The translations under genes were made by a program, and so were the position numbers. A DNA stretch of 64,000 bases. Source: Patescibacteria group bacterium. Its GTDB lineage: Bacteria; Patescibacteriota; Patescibacteriia; Buchananbacterales; UBA6539. Positions 44,138 to 57,282 of the stretch are shown here, in pieces. Each line of letters opens with the position of its first letter. Within the stretch, counting starts at the first letter, position 1. The notes beneath the pieces are model-generated. The model was given only the letters and a program-made list of their open reading frames with translations. It made no database searches and was not told the DNA's origin. The DNA lies in assembly GCA_041662625.1 (NCBI GenBank), contig JBAZSB010000001.1, positions 51,572 to 115,571 on the forward strand, in the 5' to 3' direction.

Positions 44138-44244
44138 ACCAGAAAATAAAAAAACGAGAAAGCAGTCTAAGTCTAGATTGTTTTTTTGTTTTCTTGATTG
44201 TGGTATAATTTTAATGAGATAATTATTAACTTAAATTGAGACAT

Positions 44245-45273
44245 ATGCCAATAAAAATCGCTATTAACGGTTTTGGCCGGATTGGCCGGGCCGCTTTCAA
44301 AGCTGCTTTGGAAAACAAAAATATCGAAGTTGTCGCCCTAAATGATTTAATGGACAATAAAACTTTAGCCCAACTTTTAAAGTATGACACAGTCTACGGT
44401 GAATATCCGAAATCAATTCAGGGTTCTAAAGAGGGGATAAAAATTGAAGGTAAGCTTTATCCAGTTTTTGCCGAAAAAGATCCGGCCAAATTACCTTGGC
44501 AGAAATTGAAAGTGGATGTCGTTTTGGAATGTACCGGTATTTTTCGTGATAAAAAATCCGCTGGTGCCCATTTACAAGCCGGAGCAAAAAAAGTGATAAT
44601 TTCTGCCCCGGGCCAAGATGAAGGGATACAAACTTTGGTTTATGGGAGCAAATTGACTAACGAAGTTTTAAAAAAGGGCAAGGTTGATTCGGTAATTTCC
44701 ATGGCTTCCTGCACCACCAATTGTATTTCGCCAGTGATGCAGGTTTTGGAAAGTAAATTTGGAGTCGAAAAAGCCATGATGACAACTGTTCATTCTTATA
44801 CGGCTGACCAAAATCTGGTGGACGGGCCACATAAGGATTTGCGTCGGGCGCGGGCGGCCGCTCATAATATTGTTCCCACCACTACCGGCGCCGCGATTTC
44901 AACCACCAAAGTCGTACCCAGCCTGAAGAAACTGTTTGATGGGATTTCAATTCGGGTTCCCACAATCTGTGTTTCGATTTCTGATGTCACGGCGGTTTTG
45001 AAACGAAAAAAGGTGACAGTTGAACAAATTAATAATGAATTTAAAAAAGCCACTAAAGATCCGTTATTTAAAAAAGTCTTGACCACCACCAATAAGCCGC
45101 TAGTTTCTACTGACTTCACCGGTAATCCTTACTCGACAATTGTTGATTTATCATACACTAATGTTGTCGGCGGCAATTTGGTCAAAGTTTTGGCCTGGTA
45201 TGATAATGAATGGGCTTATAGTTTACGTTTGGTGGAAATGGCCGAAGAAATCGGCAAACTAGCCAGCAAATAA
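44245..45273 (+). CDS. gap: glyceraldehyde-3-phosphate dehydrogenase
   Basis: INGFGRIGR NAD-binding motif; catalytic SCTTNC. Confidence 0.9.
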   Translation: MPIKIAINGFGRIGRAAFKAALENKNIEVVALNDLMDNKTLAQLLKYDTVYGEYPKSIQGSKEGIKIEGKLYPVFAEKDPAKLPWQKLKVDVVLECTGIFRDKKSAGAHLQAGAKKVIISAPGQDEGIQTLVYGSKLTNEVLKKGKVDSVISMASCTTNCISPVMQVLESKFGVEKAMMTTVHSYTADQNLVDGPHKDLRRARAAAHNIVPTTTGAAISTTKVVPSLKKLFDGISIRVPTICVSISDVTAVLKRKKVTVEQINNEFKKATKDPLFKKVLTTTNKPLVSTDFTGNPYSTIVDLSYTNVVGGNLVKVLAWYDNEWAYSLRLVEMAEEIGKLASK

Positions 45274-45314
45274 ATCCTAAAAACCTAATAACTTAAGAAC
45301 CTAATAACCTAAAT

Positions 45315-45443
45315 ATGGAAAAATGCAAAGAATGCGGCATGCCACTAGACGAAAAAACTTGCTGTGCTTGCAATTCCGAACTGTGCTATCACTGTTGCGC
45401 CTGCGGACCAGAATGCACCTGCGGCTGCCAAGAAAAAGAATAA
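45315..45443 (+). CDS. candidate 42-aa cysteine-rich small protein (12 Cys)
   Basis: MEKCKECGMPLDEKTCCACNSELCYHCCACGPECTCGCQEKE. Not in the ORF track because it is under 60 aa. Fills the gap between the gap stop and a strong terminator at 45462-45488. Confidence 0.4.
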   Translation: MEKCKECGMPLDEKTCCACNSELCYHCCACGPECTCGCQEKE

Positions 45444-45461
45444 TACCTTACTATTTCAAAG

Positions 45462-45488
45462 GCCCCGGTGATACCGGGGTTTTTGCTT
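45462..45488 (+). terminator. rho-independent terminator
   Basis: ccccggt-gata-accgggg perfect stem followed by tttttgcttt. Confidence 0.6.
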
Positions 45489-45520
45489 TAGAGAAAAGTT
45501 TCAAGTATTAAATTATTAGT

Positions 45521-45645
45521 TAATGTCAAAATCCTAATGTCAAATATCAAATCAAATCCAAAGCTCAAATACCAAATATTGAGCTTCGTTTTTGTCATTT
45601 GTCATTGATTTGGCATTTGGATTTTGGAATTTGTAATTTTTGAAG
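45521..45645 (-). repeat. about 100-nt 'gacatt/tcaaat' palindromic element, copy 1 (inverted relative to copies 2 and 3)
   Basis: aatgtcaaaatcctaatgtcaaat is the exact reverse complement of atttgacattaggattttgacatt at 49606-49629. Internal inverted repeats (ccaaagctcaaata/tattgagctt; caaatccaaa/tttggatttgg). Confidence 0.45.
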
Positions 45646-45738
45646 TGGGGGTTTTTGATTTGCCAGGAAGAAATATTTTCGTTAAGATATACAATAATTG
45701 AAGTTTCCATTTCAGGACCAAAGGAGGAAGGAGGAATA

Positions 45739-46008
45739 ATGAGGACAAAAGGAGTTCACCAGGCCAGGGCAGCGGCGGCCAAGGTAAAGCAATTGTCTTT
45801 TGTTGCGCCGCGAGGCTCTTTGGGCTGGCTTTCGGCCCTCTTACCGGAGGAATCTAAGCCAAGACGGTATGACTTGGTGAATGAGTTCGACGGTTTTGGC
45901 GTTGTAGCAATTGTTCCGGCGGAGGGAATTGCGGATTTGATTTCCGCCCTTAAACATGAGGGCGCAGAGCAGATCACTGTAGTAAGTATTGAAATGTACG
46001 TACCTTAA
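45739..46008 (+). CDS. stand-alone HisG C-terminal regulatory-domain-like protein (89 aa)
   Basis: Strong SD aaaggaggaaggagg. ...ALLPEESKP...GFGVVAIVPAEGIADLISALKHEGAEQITVVSIEMYVP is collinear with the C-terminal domain of the HisG-like ORF at 47531 and with E. coli HisG C-term (..[22 protein letters not shown]). Confidence 0.5.
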   Translation: MRTKGVHQARAAAAKVKQLSFVAPRGSLGWLSALLPEESKPRRYDLVNEFDGFGVVAIVPAEGIADLISALKHEGAEQITVVSIEMYVP

Positions 46009-46033
46009 TCATCCAGCATCATCGCGTTTGCGT

Positions 46034-46067
46034 CCGGCGGAGCCATGTGGTTTCCGCCGTTTTTTTT
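46034..46067 (+). terminator. terminator (homologous to the one at 48486-48517)
   Basis: ccggcggagccatgtggtttccgccgtttttttt. Confidence 0.5.
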
Positions 46068-46128
46068 AAATCTTGACGTCATTTTCTGTCTGTGTTAATG
46101 TACTAATATACTAATACGTTAAAACATT

Positions 46129-46419
46129 ATGAAAGCAGGTCACAATTGGCAAAATCAGTCAAGTAAAGCGCTGTTTAAAGCCATTTTAAAGCTCAAAACA
46201 CCGGCTGAGGCCTCTAAGTTCTTCCGTGATTTATGTACCCTTGAAGAGCTGGAGGAGATGGAAAAGCGCTGGCAGGCAGTCCAGATGATTGCCAAAAACA
46301 AGCCTTACCGTGAGATCGCCAAAAAGACCGGCTTAAGTACTTCAACCGTTACCCGCGTTGCCCATTGGCTGAATTATGGGGAAGGCGGATATAGGCTAGT
46401 TTTGAAAAGAATTAAATAG
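46129..46419 (+). CDS. TrpR-like DNA-binding protein, YerC/YecD family
   Basis: 96 aa; ...ELEEMEKRWQ...REIAKKTGLSTSTVTRV HTH typical of the YerC/YecD family. Confidence 0.65.
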   Translation: MKAGHNWQNQSSKALFKAILKLKTPAEASKFFRDLCTLEELEEMEKRWQAVQMIAKNKPYREIAKKTGLSTSTVTRVAHWLNYGEGGYRLVLKRIK

Positions 46420-46481
46420 CGAGTTCAGTAAATTCAGTAAGTTAAGTCACTGGCCTAAGGGCTTAATTTACTGAACTCGCT
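46418..46481 (+). repeat. 17-bp perfect-stem hairpin (gcgagttcag family) after the yerC-like gene
   Basis: agcgagttcagtaaatt ... aatttactgaactcgct with a 30-nt loop. Related to the motif at 59419-59442 (cagcgagttcag-ctgaactcgctg) and the downstream aactcgctgNacttgctNaat blocks. Confidence 0.45.
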
Positions 46482-46502
46482 GTACTTGCTGAATTTACTA
46501 AT

Positions 46503-46562
46503 ATGAATAAAATCAGTCAAAACATCCATCATCACCAGATTGTCTCGCCAGAGTCGAGGTAA
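46503..46562 (+). promoter_or_regulatory. candidate leader peptide with three consecutive His codons (MNKISQNIHHHQIVSPESR), followed by a hairpin plus T-run (46585-46612)
   Basis: ATG 46503 ... cat cat cac ... TAA 46562. The hairpin ccccggctttggtcgggg plus ttttgctt lies 25 nt downstream. The next gene (radical SAM, then hisG-like) starts at 46657 with a strong SD. Confidence 0.3.
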
Positions 46563-46656
46563 TTTGGTATTTTGAAATATCAGCTTGCCCCGGCTTTGGT
46601 CGGGGTTTTGCTTATAGTGAGCAAAGCCGGCTCTTTGAGAATTTAGGAGGGGAATC

Positions 46657-47538
46657 ATGATTCAGCGTGTGATGGTTGAGTTAGATAATCGTTGTGGGCG
46701 TGATTGTCCGCAGTGCTATCTAGGGTCGGATAAGCGGGGTTTGCCTTTGACTGAAGCGGTCAGGCGGGTCAAAATTCTGCAGGCACTGGGTATACCTAGT
46801 ATTAAGCCGATTTTTGGCGAGGTGCTAGATCACCCGGAATATCTGCAGCTGTTTCCACTTCTTGGCCACCATTATTGCCTTAGCTCGGGCGCCGCGATAG
46901 TTTCCGATCCGTCAATCCGGCAGCAGCTGGTTCAAAATGGTATCAAGGCGGTGAGGCTAAGTGCTCATTACTTTGACCAAGGGCGCTGGTCGCCGGTGCC
47001 GCTATCAGTTGTCCATGAAGCGATCCGATTGTTGCACGAGGTTAGTATCAAGGCCGAAGCTTTCACTATACTCTGGCGTGGTAACTACCAGTCAGTATCA
47101 GCAATCTGCCAGCGGGCAATCGCGGATGGTATCTCTACGCTACGGTTCATCAACTTGATGCCGATCCGTCCCGAACTACGATCCGATGTTCTAACCGTCG
47201 CTGAGATTCAGCAGGTCTTTGACCAGGTGGCATTAATGCGTCAGCAGATTCCTAAAGATCAGTTGACCATTAAATTGCTCGGAAACTTCGGGCCAAGACC
47301 TGGGAGTTTAGGACAAGAGTTATCTCAGAGGCGATGCTATTGTCCTGCCGGTCGGGAGAGTATCTACATCGATATTGATGGTTTAGTCTACCCTTGTATG
47401 TTTCTGCGGGGGCCACAGTGGGTGATAGGTAGATTGAACAGAAGAAAATTGACAATCAAGCAAATAACCGATAGGTTTGATCGTCGAACCTGTCAACTAC
47501 TGATACAAACGAAGGAAAGGAGCTTGAACGATGAGTGA
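46657..47538 (+). CDS. radical SAM enzyme with C-terminal SPASM/twitch-like Cys motif
   Basis: CGRDCPQC (Cx3Cx2C) at residues 13-20; C-terminal CYCPAGRESIYIDIDGLVYPC. SD aggagggg; GC-rich. Confidence 0.7.
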   Translation: MIQRVMVELDNRCGRDCPQCYLGSDKRGLPLTEAVRRVKILQALGIPSIKPIFGEVLDHPEYLQLFPLLGHHYCLSSGAAIVSDPSIRQQLVQNGIKAVRLSAHYFDQGRWSPVPLSVVHEAIRLLHEVSIKAEAFTILWRGNYQSVSAICQRAIADGISTLRFINLMPIRPELRSDVLTVAEIQQVFDQVALMRQQIPKDQLTIKLLGNFGPRPGSLGQELSQRRCYCPAGRESIYIDIDGLVYPCMFLRGPQWVIGRLNRRKLTIKQITDRFDRRTCQLLIQTKERSLNDE

Positions 47539-48439
47539 CACACAGAGAGGTTGCCGGTTGTTGGTACCAGACGGTTCGCTAGAAGAAGAGGTGCAGCGCC
47601 TGCTTTTTGAAGCTGGTATTCCAGTTTACTTTTCGGGAGACCGTCAGAACCGCGGCAAGATCAGGAATCCCGATTTGTTTCCGCCGCCGTTTGACGGGGT
47701 AATTCGGATGCGGCCTCAAGATGCAGTCTGGATGGTGGCTGACGAAAAGGCAGACTTGGCATTCGCCGGTGATGATTTGATTGCCGAGTTTGGCTATGGA
47801 AGAGATCTTGCGGCAGTCAGGCGTTACCCGATTTCCCGGGGAGGCGTCGGCGAGACGCGAATTGTAGTGGCAGTACCCCATGACTCGCCGATTCAGTCAA
47901 TCGGTCAGATCACTCCTGAGTGCGAGCTGGTTACCGAATATCCCAGTCTTGCCACGAGATGGCTGCAAGAGAGGGGCGTCACGCCACGTATTCGCCTTTC
48001 TCACGGAAAGACGGAAGTTTTCGGCGGCGGGATCGCTGATGTCATCGTTGAAAACACCGAAACCGGTAATTCCTTAACCGTTGGCGGCTGGCGGATCATC
48101 GATGAAATCATGAGGTCGCAACTGCGCGTTTTTACTCACGGAAACGCCGGCAGTTTTATGTCTTGGCTTGAAGATGAATTCTGCCTATTGCTTGACTCCG
48201 TGATAAACGCGCGTTCCTACCGATTGATCAAGTGCAATTCACCCGCGGAGCGATTGGAAGCCGTTTTGGCCATACTGCCGGCCGCGGGATCGCCGACAGT
48301 TAGCCAACTGGCCGACAAACTGGGATTCGCTATTGAATCAGTCGTCCTTGCTAAACAAGTACCTGGTCTTGTCACGCGTCTTCGCCAAGCAGGGGCACAG
48401 GCTGTTATTGACTTGGAAATGGCCAAGTACATTCCTTAA
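47531..48439 (+). CDS. hisG: ATP phosphoribosyltransferase, long form (HisG-like)
   Basis: Collinear with E. coli HisG across catalytic and C-terminal domains (RLLVPDGSL; TEYPSLATRWL...GIADVIVENTETGNSL; SPAERLEAVLAILPAAGSPTVSQLAD; AVIDLEMAKYIP). Overlaps the radical SAM stop by 8 nt, so probably translationally coupled. Confidence 0.7.
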   Translation: MSDTQRGCRLLVPDGSLEEEVQRLLFEAGIPVYFSGDRQNRGKIRNPDLFPPPFDGVIRMRPQDAVWMVADEKADLAFAGDDLIAEFGYGRDLAAVRRYPISRGGVGETRIVVAVPHDSPIQSIGQITPECELVTEYPSLATRWLQERGVTPRIRLSHGKTEVFGGGIADVIVENTETGNSLTVGGWRIIDEIMRSQLRVFTHGNAGSFMSWLEDEFCLLLDSVINARSYRLIKCNSPAERLEAVLAILPAAGSPTVSQLADKLGFAIESVVLAKQVPGLVTRLRQAGAQAVIDLEMAKYIP

Positions 48440-48485
48440 GATATGATCGGGCGATTGTATCAAGGATGTTGAGCCATCATTTTGA

Positions 48486-48517
48486 TCAGGCGGAGACCGC
48501 ACGGTTTCCGCTTTTTT
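48486..48517 (+). terminator. terminator after the hisG-like gene
   Basis: caggcggagaccgcacggtttccgcttttttt; about 80% identical to the terminator at 46034-46067. Confidence 0.5.
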
Positions 48518-48544
48518 TTATTTTTATGGTATAATATAGGCATC

Positions 48545-49531
48545 ATGACGACTAAGCAATTAGCTAAATTTTTAGAATATTTGGCCCAGCAAAATATTGT
48601 TTGGGCGCCGCAGCGGATTGATGGGGAATTGGTCATCGAGCAGGTGACTGACCCCAAAAAAGTTGAGTTAACAAGCGAAATGCCGCTGTATTCTTTTAAG
48701 CAGATTTTGGTGCCTCCCGAAGAGGTGCTTTTTAATTATCAAAAAAATCAGATTAAACCTGAGATTAAATCGCCCAGCCAAGTAATTTTTGGTTTAACCA
48801 TCCCGGATTTAAAAGCAGTAACTTTTCTAAACCAAGTTTTTGCCCAAGATCCCTATTTTCAGAACCGAATTAAAAAGACTATAATTGTCGGCCATAGTTT
48901 GGTGCCGACCGAAGGCTATCAATTTTTTATCAATAAGTTTGCCGAAGATATTTTGGAACATTTGAAATTTGATATTTTCTTTGCTGTCCAGAAAGATAAA
49001 TTTATTATTTACGCCGGTTCGGAAGACGGTCAAAAAGTTTTAGATGACTTTGGCTATAAGAATTATCAATACATTGAATATGCCGGCCCGATTCGCGAAG
49101 AGGGACCGGATGGGCAAATGTTAAAAATCAGAGAGAAATTTTATCAAAATAAAGAGATTTGGCAAGAGCTTGGCAACCGCTGTATTGAATGCGGCAAGTG
49201 TACTTTGGTTTGTCCAACTTGTTTTTGCTACAATATTTTTGATCAGCCGGAATTTGAACCGAAATCCGGCCAGCGGCGGCGCTTTTGGACCACTTGTTTT
49301 TATACGGATTTTTCCGAAGTCGCTGGCACGGAAATTGATAAAATGAAACCAAAATTTTTGAAAAATACTAGCGCGCGAATTAGGTTTTGGTATGAACATA
49401 AGTTTGTCCGTTGCCCTGATGAATTTCAGCTGGCTGGTTGTGTTGGCTGTGGCCGCTGCACCAAGGTTTGTCCGGTGGGAATTGATATTAAGGAAACACT
49501 GCAGAAAATTTTGAAGGGAAAGATTAAATAA
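48545..49531 (+). CDS. hydB: group 3b [NiFe]-hydrogenase beta subunit (HydB/AsrA-like, 2x[4Fe-4S])
   Basis: CIECGKCTLVCPTCFC and CVGCGRCTKVCPVG ferredoxin motifs. ATG 48545 with an upstream TATAAT (about 48528). Followed by hydG. Confidence 0.65.
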   Translation: MTTKQLAKFLEYLAQQNIVWAPQRIDGELVIEQVTDPKKVELTSEMPLYSFKQILVPPEEVLFNYQKNQIKPEIKSPSQVIFGLTIPDLKAVTFLNQVFAQDPYFQNRIKKTIIVGHSLVPTEGYQFFINKFAEDILEHLKFDIFFAVQKDKFIIYAGSEDGQKVLDDFGYKNYQYIEYAGPIREEGPDGQMLKIREKFYQNKEIWQELGNRCIECGKCTLVCPTCFCYNIFDQPEFEPKSGQRRRFWTTCFYTDFSEVAGTEIDKMKPKFLKNTSARIRFWYEHKFVRCPDEFQLAGCVGCGRCTKVCPVGIDIKETLQKILKGKIK

Positions 49532-49532
49532 T

Positions 49533-49640
49533 ATCAAAATTCAAATTTCAAATGACAAACCAAATCCAAAATTCAAATTTCAAAATTTGTCATTTGATTT
49601 TTGATATTGATTTGACATTAGGATTTTGACATTTAAATTT
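49533..49640 (+). repeat. 'gacatt/tcaaat' palindromic element, copy 2
   Basis: caaatgacaaa...tttgtcatttg inverted repeat; the terminal gatttgacattaggattttgacattt is shared with copy 1 (reverse complement) and copy 3. Confidence 0.45.
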
Positions 49641-49642
49641 TT

Positions 49643-50461
49643 ATGTATAATCCCTACCTGCCAAAACTAGCCAAAGTCAAAAAGATTCAGCCGGAAACAC
49701 CGGACATGAAGCTTTTTACTTTTCAGTTTATTGATAAAAATGATCGGGATAATTTTGAATTTTGGCACGGCCAATTTTTAATGCTGGGAATATTAGGTCA
49801 AGGTGAGGCGGCCTTTGACATCTGCTCTTCAACAAAAAATTCTACCACCTTTGAATTGGCAGTGAGAAAAGTCGGGACTTTGACTGATAAATTACATCAA
49901 CTCAAGGTTAATGATTTAGTGACCATCCGTGGGCCGTTTGGCAATGGTTTGCCTTTGAAAAATTTTAAAGAGAAAGATTTACTTTTGATTAGCGGTGGTT
50001 GCGGTTTTGTCACCATGCGGTCTTTTGTTTTGGATTATTTGGCAGGTAAACTTCATTTGGGGAAACTAAATGTTTTTTATGGCTGTGCCAATGAAAAGAA
50101 TTTGTTATTTAAAAATGAATACAAAAAATGGCAGAAAAAAATTGATTTGGATATTGTTTTGGATCAGCCTACCAAAAATTGGTCCGGCCCAACAGGAGTG
50201 ATTACCGCTTTGTTTAATGATCAACAGGATTTTTCCGATACCATTGCTTTAGTGGTTGGTCCGCCAGTGATGTATAAATTTGTAATTGAAGAATTGCAAA
50301 AAAGAGGAATGAAAGATTCAGATATTTATTTATCACTGGAACGCCGGATGTATTGTGGTGTAGGCGTTTGTCAGCATTGTGCGATTGGCCCCTATTATGT
50401 CTGCAAAGACGGGCCAGTGTTTAGCTGGCAGCAGCTTAAAGATATCCCCGGAGCTATATAA
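49643..50461 (+). CDS. hydG: group 3b hydrogenase gamma subunit (PyrK/AsrB-like FAD/NAD(P)-binding, C-terminal [2Fe-2S])
   Basis: Ferredoxin-reductase fold motifs (GGCGFVTMRS) and C-terminal CGVGVCQHCAIGPYYVCKDG cluster. Confidence 0.7.
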   Translation: MYNPYLPKLAKVKKIQPETPDMKLFTFQFIDKNDRDNFEFWHGQFLMLGILGQGEAAFDICSSTKNSTTFELAVRKVGTLTDKLHQLKVNDLVTIRGPFGNGLPLKNFKEKDLLLISGGCGFVTMRSFVLDYLAGKLHLGKLNVFYGCANEKNLLFKNEYKKWQKKIDLDIVLDQPTKNWSGPTGVITALFNDQQDFSDTIALVVGPPVMYKFVIEELQKRGMKDSDIYLSLERRMYCGVGVCQHCAIGPYYVCKDGPVFSWQQLKDIPGAI

Positions 50462-50487
50462 TAATTAACATTTAACTTTACAAATTT

Positions 50488-50565
50488 ATGCCTTGTCGTT
50501 GCAGTTGCTGTGGCCCCGCAAAATCAAAGGCCAAGCCAAAAAAGAAATCTAAGAAAAAAAAGTAA
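50488..50565 (+). CDS. candidate 25-aa Cys-rich, polylysine-tailed peptide (MPCRCSCCGPAKSKAKPKKKSKKKK)
   Basis: Fits exactly between the hydG stop (50461) and the nikM-like start (50589). Not in the ORF track because it is under 60 aa. Confidence 0.3.
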   Translation: MPCRCSCCGPAKSKAKPKKKSKKKK

Positions 50566-50588
50566 ATTTTTTGATTTAAGATTTTATT

Positions 50589-51287
50589 ATGCACATACCC
50601 GATGGGTTTTTAACCAGTCAGATTAATTATAGTCTGACCGTAGTATCGCTTGTTGTCGGTGGTTTTGCTTTAAAAAAAATTAAAGATTTGTTTTTTGAAA
50701 AAAGTCAGGTCTTAGCATCGCAGCTCGTGACTAGTATTGGCCAAATGGGCCAATCAAAATTAGTCAGCCGTTGGTTTTTGAAAAAAAATGCCAGCCAAAA
50801 AATTCAGCAAATAGTTTTAGTTTTCTGCTTAGTTTTTACCATTCAAATGATAGATTTTGTTAAAATTGGTGGTATTCCTGGCCATTTAATTGGCAGTTTT
50901 TTAGCGGCTTTAGTTTTGGGACCTTGGGCCGGGATTTTGATCATATCAGCGGTTTTAGCGGTCCAGGCAATATTTTTAGGTGACGGCGGCATTATGGTTT
51001 TGGGCGTTAATATTTTTAATATGGCCCTAGTTGGCTGTCTTGGCGGTTATTATCTTTATTTAATATTAAAAAAGTTAGCAAAAAATAATAATTTAGCAAT
51101 TTTTTTCGCCAGTTGGTTTTCCGTTTTAGTAATGGTATTAGCTTATGCTACTGAAGCGAAAATTACCGGCCGAACATCAGGGGTTGATCTGTTAGTAATG
51201 GTCCACGTTTTAGTTGGTGTCATTGAGGGATTAGTCACCGTTTTAGCTTTAAAATATTTATTTTCTGATAAAACCTATGAAAAATAA
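50589..51287 (+). CDS. CbiM/NikM family metal (Ni/Co) transporter substrate-capture component
   Basis: N-terminus MHIPDGFL (CbiM/NikM hallmark M-H-x-x-E/D-G); about 6 TM; hydrogenase context suggests nickel. Confidence 0.65.
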   Translation: MHIPDGFLTSQINYSLTVVSLVVGGFALKKIKDLFFEKSQVLASQLVTSIGQMGQSKLVSRWFLKKNASQKIQQIVLVFCLVFTIQMIDFVKIGGIPGHLIGSFLAALVLGPWAGILIISAVLAVQAIFLGDGGIMVLGVNIFNMALVGCLGGYYLYLILKKLAKNNNLAIFFASWFSVLVMVLAYATEAKITGRTSGVDLLVMVHVLVGVIEGLVTVLALKYLFSDKTYEK

Positions 51288-51675
51288 AATCCCATTTTTT
51301 GCTTTTTTGCTTTTTTGCTTTTTTGTTTTCTTGTTTACTGGTTGTCAGCTTAAGGAAAATTATTCGATGCAATCAAGTTTCACTAATGACATTGCTACGG
51401 AAACTAAAGTTGAAGTGGTGACTGATGGTCTTAATGCGGAAGTGCCGTTTGCTGACTTTAGTTGTGACATTAAAAGTTTTAAGCCAGTTTTAAATCGTGA
51501 TGCTGATACTTTTACTATTACTTTAAAGGGTAATGAAACCACTGAACGGTGTGGGCAGAAATTTTCTGCTCAAATCACCGGCGTTGTCCCGGGTACTTAT
51601 TGGTTAAAAGTGATTTACCAAAAAGCCGGGTCTAGTCAGCAAGTTTTATATCAGCAGTTTACCATTGCCAAGTGA
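51277..51675 (+). CDS. hypothetical lipoprotein (possible transporter accessory protein)
   Basis: Signal peptide plus lipobox FTGC; overlaps the nikM-like stop. Confidence 0.4.
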   Translation: MKNKIPFFAFLLFCFFVFLFTGCQLKENYSMQSSFTNDIATETKVEVVTDGLNAEVPFADFSCDIKSFKPVLNRDADTFTITLKGNETTERCGQKFSAQITGVVPGTYWLKVIYQKAGSSQQVLYQQFTIAK

Positions 51676-51699
51676 TTCTCGGCTAAAAGCTATAAAGAT

Positions 51700-51894
51700 A
51701 TGTGCTTAACTAAGCCAGCCAAAATTAAAAAAGTTAAAGGTCAATCAGCTGAATTGATTGATGGCCGCAAAGTCAGCGTGGCTTTTGCCGGTAAGATTAA
51801 GAAAGACGACTGGGTTTTAGCTAATGCTAATTTGGCTGTTGCTAAAATTTCTAGCAAAGTGGCCAAAGAAATTAATCAATATTTAAAAATATGA
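51700..51894 (+). CDS. hypC: hydrogenase maturation factor HypC/HupF
   Basis: MCLTKP N-terminus (MC(L/I)xxP) and DWVLANANLAV core; 64 aa (short). Confidence 0.65.
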   Translation: MCLTKPAKIKKVKGQSAELIDGRKVSVAFAGKIKKDDWVLANANLAVAKISSKVAKEINQYLKI

Positions 51895-52811
51895 AGAAAG
51901 GCATATATTTAGTTTTAATCACGGCGGTTGTTTCCGGCCTAGCTAACTTTTTCAATAAGTTTGGGATGCAGGCTTTAGGCAAAGATGCTTTTCAGTATAC
52001 GACATTGAAAAATGTCATTGTCGCTTTAGTTTTGTCCCTAATCGTTTTGACGCCTTGGATTTTACCAAAGTTGAAAAAATTAACCAAGAAAGAATGGGCT
52101 CAGTTGGCTTTAATTGGATTAATTGGCGGCAGCATTCCATTTTTATTGTTCTTCAAAGGTTTGAGCTTAACTTCGTCAGTTTCGGCTTCGTTCATTCATA
52201 AGACTATGTTTGTTTGGGTAGCAATTCTAGCCTGGCCGATCTTGAAAGAAAAAATTTCTAAACTGCAATTTTTAGCTTTAGGTATTTTGCTTTTAGGTAA
52301 TATTATTTTTGAAGGCTTCAGAGGCTTAAATTGGGGAATGGCCGAAACTTTAATTTTAGTGGCAACACTATTTTGGGCCGCAGAAAGCGTGATTGCCAAA
52401 ATTAGTCTAAAAAATATTGATTCAACGGTTTTAGCCTGGGGCCGGATGTTTTTTGGGGCGATGTTTCTACTTGGGTTTTTATTAGTCACCGGTAATACCG
52501 CAGGGCTTTTGACTTTAAGTTTGTCCCAAGTAAGTTGGCTGTTACTGGTTTCAACATTTCTGACCGGCTACGTTTTGACTTGGTATGCAGCACTAAAGAA
52601 ATTGCCGGCAACAGTGGTGACTTGCTTTTTAGTCATTGCTTCGCCAATTACGACATTTTTGAACAGCATTTTTGTCAGCCATAAGTTGGCGGGGCATAAT
52701 ATTTGGGGAGTAATAATAATTCTAGCCGGAATATTATTGTTTTGGCAGTTTAAAGAATCAAAAATTAAGAATCAAGAATTAAGGAAAGATTTTAGCGTCC
52801 TTGATTCGTAA
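51891..52811 (+). CDS. EamA/DMT family transporter
   Basis: 10 predicted TM in two EamA repeats. Confidence 0.65.
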   Translation: MKKGIYLVLITAVVSGLANFFNKFGMQALGKDAFQYTTLKNVIVALVLSLIVLTPWILPKLKKLTKKEWAQLALIGLIGGSIPFLLFFKGLSLTSSVSASFIHKTMFVWVAILAWPILKEKISKLQFLALGILLLGNIIFEGFRGLNWGMAETLILVATLFWAAESVIAKISLKNIDSTVLAWGRMFFGAMFLLGFLLVTGNTAGLLTLSLSQVSWLLLVSTFLTGYVLTWYAALKKLPATVVTCFLVIASPITTFLNSIFVSHKLAGHNIWGVIIILAGILLFWQFKESKIKNQELRKDFSVLDS

Positions 52812-52833
52812 TTCATGATTCATAATTCTTTTT

Positions 52834-53619
52834 ATGTTTGAGAATCAAAAATTTGACGGTTCCTTGCTTGCCGCGCGTTATGCTTTCATGCCCAACAAGT
52901 TACGTTACTGCGGACCTGATTCCAATTCTGAACTTTTTGCTTATACTGCCGCGAACCAAAGTGATGCCGGCTTGCAGGCAATGCTGAAAGAATTTGAAAC
53001 CATGTTTCCTTATTTAAGGCTGATTGCCGAAGCTAACCATATTGCTGACCCCTTTAATTACAAAGTCGTTGAAGCCTATTGGATTGGCAATGAATTGTTG
53101 GAAAATGTTACTATGCAGAACTTCTATCGTTATTTAGTTGATGAGCAGAAACTGAAAAAGAAATTCAAGCCAGCAGTTTTAGAAAAAGTCTTTGGCAAAA
53201 TTCCCGTTGGCGCCAAGCCGCATCATAGCTTTCATGTCTTTAACATTCCGAAGCGGACCGGGCATTATCCAGTCGAGCATAGTTTGGTGACAATGGATAG
53301 CTGCAGAATTACGCCAGCGAAAATAAAAGCTTTGGCAAGCGGCTCAAAGCCCATAGCTCAAAGCTCAAAGCTTTCCGGGATGATGGCCGTAGAATATCAG
53401 CCGTTGGTATTGCTGGGAGATAGGTTGGAGTTAGGCGAGATGGTTGAAAAAGAAGTGCTTTGCGAAATGAATGATAAAGCATTTGTTAAACAGCCAAAAG
53501 TTGGTGATTGGGTTTCTTTGCACTGGAGCTGGGTCTGCGATTTTTTGACTAAAGATCAGGTTGATAATCTGCAGAAATGGACTAAATATAATTTAGCATT
53601 AACTAATCTAAACCTATGA
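52834..53619 (+). CDS. hypothetical protein
   Basis: 261-aa soluble ORF with no recognisable motif, inside the hydrogenase locus. Confidence 0.45.
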   Translation: MFENQKFDGSLLAARYAFMPNKLRYCGPDSNSELFAYTAANQSDAGLQAMLKEFETMFPYLRLIAEANHIADPFNYKVVEAYWIGNELLENVTMQNFYRYLVDEQKLKKKFKPAVLEKVFGKIPVGAKPHHSFHVFNIPKRTGHYPVEHSLVTMDSCRITPAKIKALASGSKPIAQSSKLSGMMAVEYQPLVLLGDRLELGEMVEKEVLCEMNDKAFVKQPKVGDWVSLHWSWVCDFLTKDQVDNLQKWTKYNLALTNLNL

Positions 53620-54104
53620 AACAAGTTGATATTAAACAAGCAATAGAAAAGAAATATCCTGAAGTTGTAGTACTAGTGACTTCAATTGATAAATCTGGAA
53701 AGCCCAATGTGATGCCTGCCGGCTGGTTTGCTTTCTCTAATTCCGAGCCAGCTTGTTTGACCGTGGCAATCGGCTACAAACGTTATACTCATAAATTAAT
53801 TTCCCAGACTAAAGAATTTGTAGTTTGTTTCCCTTCGCTTGGCCAGGAAAAGGACATTGAATATTGCGGCGAAGTCAGCGGCGCCGAAGTTGATAAATTT
53901 GCGAATTGTAATTTAGAGATTTTACCTGCCGTCGAAGTTAAGCCTCCATTAATAAAAAATTCAGTTGCTTGTTTTGAGTGCAAAATTATTAATATGATGG
54001 ATTTAGCTGACCACACGGTATTTGCGGGTGAAATTGTGGCGGCGCATATTAGTGACAATAAAAGAATTTATAATTTTGGCCATCGGGTTTTTAAAACAGT
54101 ATGA
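53616..54104 (+). CDS. flavin reductase-like FMN-binding protein
   Basis: Split-barrel flavin reductase pattern (VVVLVTS..DKSGKPNVMPAGW). Confidence 0.6.
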   Translation: MKQVDIKQAIEKKYPEVVVLVTSIDKSGKPNVMPAGWFAFSNSEPACLTVAIGYKRYTHKLISQTKEFVVCFPSLGQEKDIEYCGEVSGAEVDKFANCNLEILPAVEVKPPLIKNSVACFECKIINMMDLADHTVFAGEIVAAHISDNKRIYNFGHRVFKTV

Positions 54105-54964
54105 AAATTAAGAATAAAAAACCAAAAGTTGCCATTGTCGGCCTGACTTGCTGTGAAGGCTGTGAGTTTGCAATACTGGACTTAGGCCAGCGGTTTTTGG
54201 ATTTGGCTAAATGGATTGATCTGGTTGAATTTAGAATGGTCAAAGATGATCCGCCAAAAAGTGGACCATATGATATTTGTTTTATTGAAGGTTCGGCGGT
54301 GACCAAAAAGAATTTGCAAGTTTTAAAGGAGCTGCGGAAAGTTTCAAAAAAATTGATTGTTTTAGGCAACTGCGCCCACACTGGCGGCATTCACCGGATG
54401 AAAAATTTCATCGGCCGGATTAAAGCCATTGGTCAAGTTTACAATCAGCCAAAAGGGATTGATAATCCGCCGGTTTTACCAATTTCCGAAATTGTTAAAG
54501 TTGATTTTGTCATCCCGACTTGCCCGATTAATGCCGAGGAATTTTTAGCGATTATTCAGCAAATTTTAGCCGGTAAAACGCCGCAGATTCCGCAAAACCC
54601 GGTTTGCTACCAGTGCCAAATCAATGGCTATGAATGTTTGCTCCAAAAAGGCGAGCTGTGTTGCGGGCCAATTACTTTAGGCGGTTGCCAGGCGGTTTGT
54701 CTAAAGAGTAAGCAAGCTTGTTGGGGTTGTCGGGGACTTTTGGAAGAACCTGATGTTGATAAATTTGTTAAAAATTGTTTTTTAGCTGACCATCCGATTG
54801 GCGAGATAACCAGAGTCCTGGAGGTTTTCGGGGTGCGCGATGACTGGGGCGAGCAAGCAGTCAAGGAATGGAAAAGTCAGCAGACGCCGAAGGATCTGAT
54901 GGTAGTTAAAAAGAAATCCAAAATCCAAATGACAAATGTCAAATCAAATCCAAAATCCAAATGA
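54101..54964 (+). CDS. hydD: group 3b [NiFe]-hydrogenase small (delta) subunit
   Basis: N-terminal CCEGCE cluster motif (NuoB/hydrogenase small subunit family). The last about 17 codons run into repeat copy 3. Confidence 0.7.
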   Translation: MKIKNKKPKVAIVGLTCCEGCEFAILDLGQRFLDLAKWIDLVEFRMVKDDPPKSGPYDICFIEGSAVTKKNLQVLKELRKVSKKLIVLGNCAHTGGIHRMKNFIGRIKAIGQVYNQPKGIDNPPVLPISEIVKVDFVIPTCPINAEEFLAIIQQILAGKTPQIPQNPVCYQCQINGYECLLQKGELCCGPITLGGCQAVCLKSKQACWGCRGLLEEPDVDKFVKNCFLADHPIGEITRVLEVFGVRDDWGEQAVKEWKSQQTPKDLMVVKKKSKIQMTNVKSNPKSK

Positions 54965-55033
54965 CAAAAAATTGTTTAACATTTGAGCTTTGGTATTTGA
55001 TATTGATTGGAAATTTGGATTTTGACATTTGGG
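54914..55033 (+). repeat. 'gacatt/tcaaat' palindromic element, copy 3 (with internal 23-nt direct repeat aaatccaaaatccaaatgacaaa x2)
   Basis: ttgatattgatt...ggattttgacattt shared with copy 2; overlaps the hydD 3' end. Confidence 0.45.
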
Positions 55034-55042
55034 TTTAAACCA

Positions 55043-55288
55043 ATGATCCACAAAGATAAAATCAAACACTTTTTAGCTTCGTCTTTCCTTACTGCTTTAA
55101 TCTATTGGTTAAGCCAAAATTTAATTTTGGCGATTCTAGTTCCCTTGTTGTTTGGTTTGGCCAAAGAATTATATGACCAGGCCAAGAAGAAAAATACTGT
55201 CAGTGAATCAATATTTGATTTAGGGGCTAATATTTTGGGAATAATTTTAGGAATCCTGGTCATTTATTTGGTAAATTTAAAATTATAA
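55043..55288 (+). CDS. hypothetical small membrane protein
   Basis: Two to three TM helices; ATG 55043 immediately after repeat copy 3. Confidence 0.4.
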   Translation: MIHKDKIKHFLASSFLTALIYWLSQNLILAILVPLLFGLAKELYDQAKKKNTVSESIFDLGANILGIILGILVIYLVNLKL

Positions 55289-55355
55289 AAAAACAGGGTG
55301 GCCCTATCGATCCATAAAGGAAAGAGAGCCACCGCTGACATGAGAGGGTTCGGTG

Positions 55356-55556
55356 TTATCGCCGCCGGCAGAACCAGAAGAACGGTAACACCATCCAAAT
55401 AACCCCAGCCAACGCGAGCGGCGGTGCATCGCTTTCGGCCGCCAATACACAGACGGCCAAGCCGGGTATAAAGAACAGGACGCCGTAGAAGAACCCAACT
55501 ACGGCCAGGAATTCGCCGATCCGTTCCCGGGTCGACAACGCTGCTGATTCAGTCAT
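55356..55556 (-). CDS. hypothetical GC-rich two-TM small protein with its own terminator (55294-55337, minus)
   Basis: MTESAALSTRERIGEFLAVVGFFYGVLFFIPGLAVCVLAAESD...; composition unlike the flanks; hairpin cagcggtggc...gccaccctg plus T-run downstream on the minus strand. Confidence 0.35.
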   Translation of the reverse strand: MTESAALSTRERIGEFLAVVGFFYGVLFFIPGLAVCVLAAESDAPPLALAGVIWMVLPFFWFCRRR

Positions 55557-55639
55557 ACAACAACCCTTTCTTATTTTCACCCACCATTGAGTGATAAAGT
55601 ATATTAAGATAAATTAATTATTTTGTCAATAATAGCGTT

Positions 55640-56926
55640 ATGAAGATTAAGATAAATCATTTAGCCAAGATGGAAGGCCACCTGGATTTTATTGGTGATA
55701 TTCTAAAAGGGGATGTGGCGTCTGCCAAAATTAAAACCACCGAAGGTGTCCGGTTGATTGAAAGCATATTGGTCGGCCGGAAATTTTCGGATGCACCAAT
55801 TATCACTGCCCGGATTTGCGGCATTTGCCCGGTGGTTCATTCGCTCAACACAATTAAAACCATTGAAAATGCTTTTGGCCTTAAGCCATCGGTTCAAACC
55901 ATCAAACTGAGAAAACTGATGGAATTGTCGCAAATAATTCATAGTCATGCTTTGCATTTGTATTTTCTGTCAATGCCGGATTTTTATGGAGTCAAAGATG
56001 ATTTGGATTTCATCAAAAAGCATCCCACCCAAGCTTCCTCGGCTATTACCTTAAGGGAATTCGGTTTGAAAATTCTGGAAGTGGTCGCTGGCCGCGCTAT
56101 TCATCCGATCGCCTGCGAAGTTGGTGGTTTTAAAGTTTTACCAAAAAAGAAAAAGCTGGAGGAACTCCTAGAAATGTATGAAGGGGCGATGTCAGCCGCA
56201 ATGCAGCTGGTTTTGTTTGCCGCCAGGTTGCCTTTTCCTAAGTTCTACCGGGAAATGGAGTTTGCCGCGCTAAACCAAAAAGGCGAATATGCGGTTTATG
56301 ACGGCGAAGTTAAATTTTTGGCGGGCAAAACTGTAAAAGCCAAAGATTATAGTCATATTATTACTGAATATCAGTTGCTTGGTTTGGCGGCTAAACGTGC
56401 CAATTACTCAGGTAAAAGTTTTATGGTCGGGGCTTTGGCGCGTTTAAATATTAATCATAATCAATTAAACCCCCAGGCCAAAAAAGTGGTAAAAGATTTG
56501 AAATTAGAATTTCCGATTTATAATACTTTTATGAACATTTTGGCCCAGGCGATTGAAATCGTCCAGGCCACTGAAGCAGCGGGTAATTTATTGGCAGATT
56601 TAATTAAGACTCTAAAACCCGAAGTAAGTTTAGGTCATAAGCTAAACTTAATCGCTAATGCTAACCCTAAAAATAAAATTACAATTGGTTATTCGGTGAT
56701 GGAAGCGCCGCGCGGAATCCTTTACGACATGTTGGAAATTGGTGCTAATGGAATTATCACCAAAGCCGATATCATTACGCCAACAGTTCAATTTTTGAAT
56801 AATCTTGAAGATGATTTGAAAGTTTATTTACCAAATTTAAAAAAGCTAAGTGCGGCTGAACGCGAGCAGAAAATCAAAACTTTGATCCGGGCGTATGATC
56901 CGTGTATTAGCTGCGCCACTCACTAA
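55640..56926 (+). CDS. hydA: group 3b [NiFe]-hydrogenase large (alpha) subunit
   Basis: N-terminal RICGICPVVH (RxCGxCxxxH) and C-terminal DPCISCATH (DPCxxCxxH) Ni-Fe ligand motifs. Confidence 0.85.
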   Translation: MKIKINHLAKMEGHLDFIGDILKGDVASAKIKTTEGVRLIESILVGRKFSDAPIITARICGICPVVHSLNTIKTIENAFGLKPSVQTIKLRKLMELSQIIHSHALHLYFLSMPDFYGVKDDLDFIKKHPTQASSAITLREFGLKILEVVAGRAIHPIACEVGGFKVLPKKKKLEELLEMYEGAMSAAMQLVLFAARLPFPKFYREMEFAALNQKGEYAVYDGEVKFLAGKTVKAKDYSHIITEYQLLGLAAKRANYSGKSFMVGALARLNINHNQLNPQAKKVVKDLKLEFPIYNTFMNILAQAIEIVQATEAAGNLLADLIKTLKPEVSLGHKLNLIANANPKNKITIGYSVMEAPRGILYDMLEIGANGIITKADIITPTVQFLNNLEDDLKVYLPNLKKLSAAEREQKIKTLIRAYDPCISCATH

Positions 56927-57027: not shown

Positions 57028-57282
57028 ATGCACGATTTACACGCAGCTGACCAAATCTTAAAGCTGGTTTTAGCAAAAGCCATTGAAAATAAATTATTGA
57101 AAGTAAAAAAAATTGTCATCGAACTGGGCAGTATGGTTGAGCATGGTCAAGATATTGATCCTGACAATTTGGCTTTTAATATCAAATTATTAGCCAGAAG
57201 TACACCCGCTCGTGACCTGAAAGTAATCATTAAAAAAGTTAAAGGCTTTGGCTGGCAACTGGTTGAGATTGAAGGTGACTAG
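57028..57282 (+). CDS. HypA-like hydrogenase nickel-insertion protein lacking the zinc-finger domain
   Basis: MHDLHAADQILKLVL... aligns to the HypA N-terminal Ni-binding domain (MHE...). No Cys at all, so the CxxC...CxxC Zn site is absent; 84 aa. Confidence 0.5.
   Translation: MHDLHAADQILKLVLAKAIENKLLKVKKIVIELGSMVEHGQDIDPDNLAFNIKLLARSTPARDLKVIIKKVKGFGWQLVEIEGD

Follow-up and report, generated by a model that had tools for sequence, protein, structure and literature searches.

The open reading frame (ORF) at positions 45315–45443 of the window, by which we mean the whole stretch of 64,000 nucleotides analyzed here, is a real, conserved protein-coding gene. Our preferred reading, to which we give a probability of about 0.55, is that of a translated single-copy gene for a cytoplasmic, metallothionein-like protein with a metal–thiolate cluster, in which we infer the metal binding and the role. 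The product is MEKCKECGMPLDEKTCCACNSELCYHCCACGPECTCGCQEKE, an acidic protein (pI 4.7) of 42 amino acids and 4.6 kDa without a signal peptide, and 12 of the 42 residues (29%) are Cys. The coordinates, the length and the Cys count were reported in a preliminary description of this DNA, and they were reproduced when we reread the positions and the translation. The same description called the ORF unannotated, but an identical protein has already been deposited from a metagenome-assembled genome (MAG), on a contig of 922 kb, as hypothetical protein WC675_00420 (Patescibacteria group bacterium); the public annotation of this entry is hypothetical only. The immediate locus consists of the following elements:

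44236..45273, + strand: gap, encoding glyceraldehyde-3-phosphate dehydrogenase (Pfam Gp_dh_N E 1e-37, Gp_dh_C E 2e-54)
45179..45207, + strand: weak sigma-70-like match TGGTCA-17-GATAAT (9/12), lying within the 3' end of gap
45274..45314, + strand: A/T-rich spacer of 41 nt from the gap stop codon to the ATG, with no Shine–Dalgarno (SD) motif
45315..45443, + strand, stop codon included: coding sequence of the 42-amino-acid, 12-Cys protein, starting with ATG
45457..45489, + strand: intrinsic-terminator-like hairpin with a 13-bp stem (RNAfold)

The spacer contains a tandem 16-nt repeat (45278–45293 and 45294–45309). Because a terminator scan detected nothing resembling a terminator from 45273 to 45315, gap and the small gene, which lie on the same strand, may be co-transcribed. 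The hairpin downstream has its core, CCCCGGT-GAT-ACCGGGG with the loop GAT, at 45463–45479; RNAfold widens the stem to 13 bp (45457–45485), and the stem is followed by TTTTTGCTTT, the T-run beginning at 45480. It comes about 20 nt past the stop codon of the small gene, and the distance of 190 nt from the gap stop codon to the hairpin was given correctly in the preliminary description. The predicted folding energy is −21.8 kcal/mol (z = −3.9), which none of 200 shuffled sequences equaled. The hairpin was identified with RNAfold and is not in the list produced by a simple terminator scan of the window; it probably terminates the transcript bearing the small gene. The sigma-70-like match at 45179..45207 could be regarded as a separate promoter of the small gene, which is speculative: such matches are no commoner here than in shuffled sequences (8 found versus 6.2 expected). 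We also considered the missing SD motif as an argument against translation and rejected it. SD-like motifs precede about 10 of the 53 long window ORFs and, in the family, 9 of 73 genes, at a background of 0.11, and as most genes of both sets thus lack the motif, its absence at the small gene is uninformative.

Several lines of evidence establish the ORF as a gene. No other 42-residue stretch in the six frames of the window is as rich in Cys, the runner-up having nine, and the number of such stretches expected by chance in the window is about 1e-5 (binomial, using the window TGY frequency). A homologue of 49 amino acids (L001), 73% identical to the window protein, is found on three metagenomic contigs in another neighborhood, where it follows a Mur-ligase-like gene and is faced by convergent genes for phosphoglycerate mutase and enolase. 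While the flanks of these contigs are unalignable to the window, the coding part aligns and the differences fall mostly in third codon positions. Over the 41 aligned codons, pN is 0.13 and pS is 0.84, the latter saturated, and the contrast between the two shows that selection on the protein encoded in this frame is strongly purifying. The combination of Cys density and pN/pS rules out a chance ORF.

We then have two relatives with shared synteny, L038 and L070, in which gap is 71–72% identical to that of the window and an intact small ORF with the same Cys pattern is present 3' of gap. L038 keeps the direct order of gap and the small gene, and L070 has a 628-amino-acid ORF between them. The preliminary description had named two observations that would speak against a protein-coding gene: absence or frameshifting of the ORF in relatives with conserved flanks, and a conserved RNA structure that explains the conservation instead. 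We looked for both. The ORF is intact in L038 and in L070, and Rfam returned noise matches only, with no family that explains the region. The proposal of a real protein-coding gene is thus borne out by the homologues, the conservation of the Cys pattern and the purifying selection.

The gene belongs to a sizable family. A profile search (HMMER) of 1.84 billion cluster representatives retrieved 41 proteins at E ≤ 1e-3, all of 42–81 amino acids with the single exception of one of 127. A set of 5.8 billion proteins gave 42 clusters, and all those with a name are hypothetical proteins from MAGs of Patescibacteria, Paceibacterota or Berkelbacteria. Genomic loci were collected by searching one genome per species with a degenerate DNA pattern designed by hand to capture the Cys scaffold, followed by hmmsearch. 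The family HMM confirmed 66 of the 119 pattern-derived loci, making 66 species-representative genomes positive, and it recognizes the window protein, which also fits the family pattern, with an E-value of 2e-16. The family proteins are 40–85 amino acids long around a core of 35 residues.

About 50 of the 66 confirmed loci are explicitly labeled as CPR (Paceibacterota; Buchanan-, Falkow-, Magasanik-, Berkel-, Nealson-, Portnoy- and Colwellbacteria; Minisyncoccales; "Saccharibacteria"), and the others are labeled "uncultured Gammaproteobacteria," "Pacearchaeota" or plain "bacterium." We considered whether the Gammaproteobacteria and Pacearchaeota labels indicate a wider distribution and rejected this: these loci are syntenic with labeled CPR loci and in some cases encode nearly the same proteins, and we take the labels to be artifacts. 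The family HMM confirmed none of the pattern matches in other phyla. Judged by the informative record labels, the family is, on the sequences searched, restricted to Patescibacteria (CPR). It also appears to be previously undescribed, having no Pfam, NCBIfam or PDB entry, and in the searchable literature on metallothioneins and cysteine-rich proteins in Patescibacteria/CPR we found nothing relevant and no mention of the family.

The alignment of 120 unique cores gives the scaffold C-x(1,2)-C-G-M-P-[LIMVF]-x(5,6)-C-x-C-x4-C-x-[H/Y]-C-C-x-C-x3-C-x-C-G-C, in which Cys makes up 32% of the residues and occurs in CxxC, CxC, CC and CxCxC motifs. Eleven of the 12 Cys of the window protein are conserved family-wide (C4, C7, C17, C19, C24, C27, C28, C30, C34, C36 and C38); C16 is not. 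The internal loops of four and three residues have the same length in all 120 cores. The first knuckle reads CxxCG in 87 cores, M9 and P10 are each found in 115, position 11 is L, I, M, V or F in every core, and G37 is present in 93 of them. Position 26 is mostly H (77/120) and otherwise often Y (21/120). The only aromatic or His residues of the window protein are Y25 and H26. With regard to the scarcity of aromatic and hydrophobic residues typical of metallothioneins the picture is mixed, since the family conserves an aromatic or hydrophobic residue at position 25 as well as M9-P10-L11. A median of five residues precedes the first conserved Cys, and the C-terminal tails are variable, 17 of the 120 cores being followed by long poly-acidic ones. 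The fixed spacing together with the conserved non-ligand residues G-M-P-L and G37 could also be that of a structural multi-zinc module working with a binding partner rather than of a metal buffer.

AlphaFold2, run with the family alignment, predicts a compact structure for the window protein with a mean pLDDT of 87.3 and a pTM of 0.59, almost without regular secondary structure according to DSSP. For a member 48% identical to it, the pLDDT is 83.7, rising to 85–91 in the core. Foldseek searches with the two models found no significant structural neighbor: the weak matches have E > 2 and a TM-score of about 0.4, and all of them are Zn modules (RING, LIM, FYVE, PHD, ZZ and RecO). We read the models as predicting a defined fold made of Cys knuckles that has no significant solved neighbor.

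These results bear on the strongest alternative, that the protein is a structural multi-zinc finger with three cross-braced Zn sites, acting as an adaptor or regulator that binds a specific protein or nucleic acid and using the metal as a scaffold. The invariant spacing, the high conservation of G8, M9, P10, L11 and G37, and the confident, compact AlphaFold models would all agree with it, as would the zinc-module character of every weak Foldseek match; the poly-acidic tails of one subfamily suggest an interaction surface. The structural matches are nevertheless nonsignificant, and Pfam support for a zinc finger comes down to one member among 42 matching Zn_ribbon_2 at E 4.3, with no match to any other zinc-finger family. 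Furthermore, 11 Cys in 35 residues exceed what a two- or three-zinc finger needs without bridging, and no neighboring gene is conserved as a partner, no gene family being present at more than 11 of 74 loci. We regard this alternative as possible but clearly less probable than a metallothionein-like protein.

The genomic context was surveyed by clustering the ORFs within 4 kb of 74 nonredundant family loci. No conserved partner gene was found across these loci, and the commonest neighbor family is present at no more than 11. Three gene orders recur: M23 peptidase, family gene and a convergent Xer-like recombinase (11 loci); the family gene directly 3' of atpC at the end of the ATP synthase operon (about 8–10 loci); and Gmad2/Germane lipoprotein, gap and family gene (the window, L038 and L070). 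A same-strand upstream gene is present at 59 of the 74 loci, at a median distance of 75 nt, and a hairpin with a T-run lies within 100 nt past the stop codon at 38 loci, compared with 4 of 74 random control segments. The picture, as drawn from these arrangements, is that of a small gene added behind the last gene of well-expressed housekeeping units, apparently with a terminator of its own.

A few neighbors hint at the chemistry involved. Desulfoferrodoxin is encoded within 4 kb at 5 of the 74 loci, in four different arrangements, where the rough chance expectation is less than one locus if each genome of about 1,000 genes has one such gene, a figure that is an estimate and not a test. A CsoR-type repressor is found within 4 kb at two loci (L005 and L055), the first of which also has an HMA-domain protein. 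These neighbors may be a weak lead toward oxidative-stress or metal chemistry. The desulfoferrodoxin neighbors would also fit an iron redox mini-protein with a rubredoxin- or desulforedoxin-like Fe(Cys)4 site or an unusual Fe–S center, passing electrons to superoxide reductase or hydrogenase, for example. The host organisms are anaerobes and the window encodes a group 3b hydrogenase, and the CxxCG knuckle with a CC pair next to it resembles desulforedoxin. On the other hand, of the two CxxCG-type knuckles with an aromatic core that mark the rubredoxin and desulforedoxin proteins, only the first has a likeness in the family, the spacing fits no known Fe–S motif, and 42 members searched with the Rubredoxin, Desulfoferrod_N and Fer4 profiles gave no match even at E ≤ 10. 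As the desulfoferrodoxin neighbor is missing from 69 of the 74 loci, and no desulfoferrodoxin gene is present in the window itself, we consider an iron redox function unlikely.

The preliminary description also raised the possibility of a Cys-rich precursor of a ribosomally synthesized and posttranslationally modified peptide (RiPP), pointing to a SPASM-type radical SAM gene 1.2 kb downstream. That gene exists:

46657–47538: SPASM/radical SAM ORF (SPASM E 2.8e-5; CxxxCxxC at residues 13–20)

The small protein would then be a substrate cross-linked by this enzyme, and beyond the proximity of the two genes in the window, L038 too has, in the corresponding place, a radical SAM protein whose Cys motifs are SPASM-like. 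The correspondence does not hold on closer inspection. Between the radical SAM proteins of the window and L038 no homology is detectable (best E 0.014 over 17 amino acids), and L070, an equally close relative, has HisI (PRA-CH) and a PLP enzyme at that position. An enzyme with any CxxxCxxC motif is found within 4 kb at just 4 of the 74 loci, and two of those four look like housekeeping enzymes by sequence motif, one RlmN-like (L099) and one activase-like (L066). The window enzyme has no orthologue at any other family locus; it, a HisG-like gene and a small HisG_C-like ORF are all singletons in the clustering of neighbors. It lies within a GC-rich segment (45600–48440, 45–55% GC versus 37–40% around it) and is separated from the small ORF by the terminator of the latter, two further terminator-like hairpins and two genes. 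The TrpR-like gene of the window is 73–74% identical to those of L038 and L070, the L038 radical SAM gene lying behind it, and the hydrogenase beta gene is shared with L038 only (77%). The protein itself shows no division into leader and core and no NCBIfam match at E ≤ 1, the SCIFF model TIGR03973 included, and neither a protease nor an exporter is encoded nearby. Because there is no recurring radical SAM enzyme, no leader and no match to a precursor model, the RiPP interpretation is unsupported, and we consider it very improbable.

A secreted disulfide-rich peptide of the toxin or bacteriocin type is similarly improbable. While the protein is small and Cys-rich and its predicted fold is compact, it has no signal peptide or leader, only about five residues typically preceding the first Cys, and the number of conserved Cys is odd. 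The product is acidic, its gene is part of housekeeping operons, and neither an exporter nor an immunity gene lies nearby.

A further suggestion of the preliminary description concerned hydrogenase maturation: the small protein might supply the metal handling missing from a HypA-like protein that has no Cys. The latter was found as described:

57028–57282: HypA-like ORF without Cys, matching only positions 1–69 of the 112 of the HypA profile

This ORF follows the gene for the alpha subunit of the group 3b NiFe hydrogenase, a CbiM transporter is also encoded in the window, and the CxxC...CxxC half of HypA is indeed missing, all of which would be compatible with a trans-acting substitute for the zinc domain of a truncated HypA in NiFe-hydrogenase maturation. 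We found no support for such a role. The two genes are 11.6 kb apart, and just 2 of the 74 loci, the window and L038, have hydrogenase genes in the neighborhood of the family gene; elsewhere the family is found next to atp genes, M23 peptidases and in other contexts unrelated to hydrogenases. There is no resemblance to HypA in the sequences either, as no family member matches the HypA profile (42 members, E ≤ 10). We consider a role as a HypA substitute very improbable.

In the metallothionein-like reading that we prefer, the 11 conserved Cys would, as CxxC, CxC and CC pairs, wrap a polynuclear metal–thiolate center that also gives the protein its fold, and the usual His or Tyr at position 26 and the Gly-Met-Pro-hydrophobic knuckle would accompany the thiolates around this center. 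Eleven thiolates would fit three to four Zn(II) or Cd(II) ions if some of the sulfurs bridge, and alternatively a larger cluster of Cu(I); as the number is 11, three independent tetrahedral sites would require a twelfth ligand (His26 where present) or a bridging sulfur. The outcome would be a small, rigid fold like those of structured bacterial metallothioneins. The protein would be expressed from the last cistron of housekeeping units, here the gap unit, which would be shut by the intrinsic terminator. The placement at operon ends, with no metal-responsive regulator, suggests that metal would be buffered or donated constitutively and that detoxification on induction is less likely, and the likeliest role would be constitutive metal buffering or donation, thiol redox protection, or both, in anaerobes with reduced genomes. 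The metal binding, its stoichiometry, the identity of the metal and the physiological role are all what we infer from sequence.

CPR/Patescibacteria account for much of bacterial diversity, and their tiny genomes encode lineage-specific proteins that are mostly unexplained. Here, a conserved protein of 4–5 kDa with 11 conserved Cys sits on core operons, those of glycolysis and ATP synthase among them, and matches no database family. Lacking both a database family and a structural neighbor and being a small peptide, it is a cheap and directly testable candidate, and its metal content would bear on how CPR bacteria cope with oxidative stress or manage zinc, copper or iron. The clean sequence signature would allow annotation of a family now called "hypothetical protein" or overlooked. 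A bolder and rather doubtful idea is that the protein has a structurally new, Patescibacteria-specific polynuclear metal–thiolate fold and serves as a constitutive housekeeping hub and not as a stress-induced detoxifier. If true, the hub could act as a metal donor, a thiol redox buffer, or an electron or metal partner of superoxide reductase, and it may offset thiol and metal-homeostasis systems missing from the reduced genomes; the family would then represent another independent lineage of bacterial metallothioneins and a lineage marker of CPR physiology.

By comparison with known proteins, this is, as far as sequences can tell, a new CPR-restricted family whose general kind is already known. 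The window protein has no Pfam or NCBIfam match at E ≤ 1. When 42 members were searched against Pfam at E ≤ 10, the only recurrent family was Metallothio_5 (PF02067), which matched 11 of the 42, all below threshold with a best E-value of 0.089, and did not match the window protein; PF02069 matched none of them. A search of PDB sequences with the family profile gave zero matches at E ≤ 10. Compared by hhalign, the family gave probabilities of 3% (2.9%) with SmtA, 5% with human MT2A and 36% with Drosophila MtnA. The size, well under the ~10 kDa usual as a limit for metallothioneins, and the high Cys content and motifs are those of a metallothionein. The term "metallothionein-like" used in the preliminary description therefore stands for composition, size and Cys motifs, and falls for membership of the known metallothionein families, given the profile and hhalign results. 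It is a fair word for the composition and for what is likeliest to be the function, with metal binding as a prediction.

Short and Cys-rich, the protein resembles the SCIFF/SPASM RiPP precursors, and in the window a SPASM enzyme is encoded within 1.2 kb, but it differs from them by having no conserved maturase, no leader and no match to TIGR03973 or another precursor model. With the cross-brace and treble-clef zinc modules (RING, LIM, FYVE, PHD and ZZ) it shares successive Cys pairs in knuckles. These modules, however, are eukaryotic interaction domains with two Zn and eight ligands, and their structural match to the family is nonsignificant.

The eukaryotic metallothioneins, both the mammalian alpha-domain and family 5 of Diptera, are similar in their scarce secondary structure, their Cys content of about 30% and their CxC, CC and CxxC motifs. 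The four-metal cluster of the mammalian alpha-domain has 11 thiolate ligands, which is the number of conserved Cys in the family. Unlike the floppy eukaryotic proteins, the family has a rigid spacing, a conserved GMPL and H/Y26, and a confident single-domain AlphaFold model. Among bacterial metallothioneins, the Cu(I) protein MymT of Mycobacterium is likewise lineage-restricted and Cys-rich, at ~5 kDa, and was found only by targeted search. The role of MymT is copper detoxification (PMC7387436), and it is set apart from the family by description: we saw no sign of copper regulation, the pair of CsoR and HMA genes being near the family gene only at L005.

A further comparison is with the BmtA/SmtA proteins (PF02069; SmtA and PflQ2 MT). 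According to PMC7387436, SmtA and MymT are the only two bacterial metallothioneins whose biological function has been studied. Like the family, the BmtA/SmtA proteins are small (~55 amino acids), cytoplasmic and Cys-rich; they hold a cluster of three to four Zn bound by thiolates, or thiolates and His, with a zinc-finger-like element (PMC7387436, PMC10612145). His is among the likely ligands in both, and the Pseudomonas members too have no adjacent metal regulator, in which they and the family differ from the smtA–smtB arrangement: no metal-responsive regulator is consistently found beside the family gene. The two groups have no sequence relationship, their motif order differs, and the 11 conserved Cys of the family stand against nine Cys and one or two His in BmtA/SmtA; the family is confined to Patescibacteria, and its metal binding is a prediction. 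The known bacterial metallothioneins SmtA and PflQ2 MT fold into rigid, well-defined Zn clusters whose core resembles a zinc finger (PMC10612145, PMC7387436), and because they are rigid too, the rigid Cys spacing of the Patescibacteria family is no argument against a metallothionein-like role.

We found a segment of elevated GC content in the window downstream of the small gene, the 42-aa, 12-Cys ORF at 45315-45443 (+) of the Cys-rich mini-protein family: the GC profile stands at 45-55% across 45600-48440, compared with 37-40% in the flanks. Four genes lie inside it:

45739-46008, small HisG_C-like ORF
46129-46419, TrpR/YerC-like regulator
46657-47538, SPASM/radical SAM gene
47531-48439, long-form HisG-like gene, overlapping the stop of the radical SAM gene

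The TrpR-like gene is retained in both syntenic relatives, L038 and L070, and the genes behind it differ, L038 carrying a different radical SAM gene and a 177-aa ORF and L070 carrying HisI (PRA-CH) and a PLP enzyme. The segment looks like a variable cassette behind a conserved regulator, with a cargo that is perhaps devoted to his-related chemistry.

Several hairpins and repeats surround the small gene. The spacer that separates it from gap is filled by a tandem 16-nt direct repeat at 45278-45309 (TAAAAACCTAATAACT / TAAGAACCTAATAACC). The terminator hairpin behind it (45462-45488) has a second copy, 70% identical, at 46587-46613 (GCCCCGG...CGGGGTTTTGCTT), immediately upstream of the radical SAM gene, and the two copies flank the HisG_C-like and TrpR-like genes on either side. 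The AT-rich spacer from the terminator to the next ORF is occupied by an imperfect hairpin of ~110 nt (45519-45631) with a folding energy of -35 kcal/mol (z = -5.0), and none of 200 shuffled sequences was equally stable. Compared with Rfam, this hairpin belonged to no family, the sole match being a plant miRNA model that we regard as noise. Across the whole window, an SD-like motif preceded the listed start of only ~10 of 53 long ORFs, which equals the background rate (0.11), and Shine-Dalgarno pairing seems to play a minor part in this genome.

The group 3b NiFe (sulf)hydrogenase genes of the window (48482-56926) are split into two pairs, beta with gamma and delta with alpha, beginning at the following positions:

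48482, hydrogenase beta
49643, hydrogenase gamma
54101, hydrogenase delta
55640, hydrogenase alpha

Between the pairs lie CbiM (50589), a lipoprotein-like ORF, an EamA transporter, DUF6390 and a flavin reductase. The 84-aa HypA-like ORF at 57028-57282 (MHDLHAAD...) covers only positions 1-69 of the 112 in the HypA profile; the match is to the N-terminal nickel-binding part, the zinc domain is absent and the ORF contains zero cysteines.

Elsewhere in the family, 17 of the 120 unique sequences of the Cys-rich core belong to a subfamily with poly-Asp/Glu C-terminal tails of 25-40 residues, mostly found in an M23-peptidase/Xer context (e.g., loci L004, L006, L028, L114 and L130). P0038, a 127-aa cluster representative without a locus, has only the first, N-terminal half of the motif, through CC-x-C, joined to an unrelated C-terminal region of ~90 aa with a GHFIP...C-x2-C-x-C motif; either a fusion of two genes or an artefactual frameshift could account for it.

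The window contains no desulfoferrodoxin gene. Such genes, encoding superoxide reductase, occur no more than 4 kb from the family gene at five loci (L001/L002, L005, L015, L105 and L110) in four different arrangements, and at L005 a CsoR-type repressor is present as well, together with an HMA-domain protein.

The family gene was also found on MAG contigs whose records carry the label 'uncultured Gammaproteobacteria' or 'Pacearchaeota archaeon', in a first group of loci (L014, L018, L053, L082, L084, L088, L095, L099, L103, L126, L128 and L130) and a second (L044 and L086). These labels are probably wrong on the family-positive records: the loci share their synteny with genomes that are labelled as CPR, and in some the proteins are near-identical.
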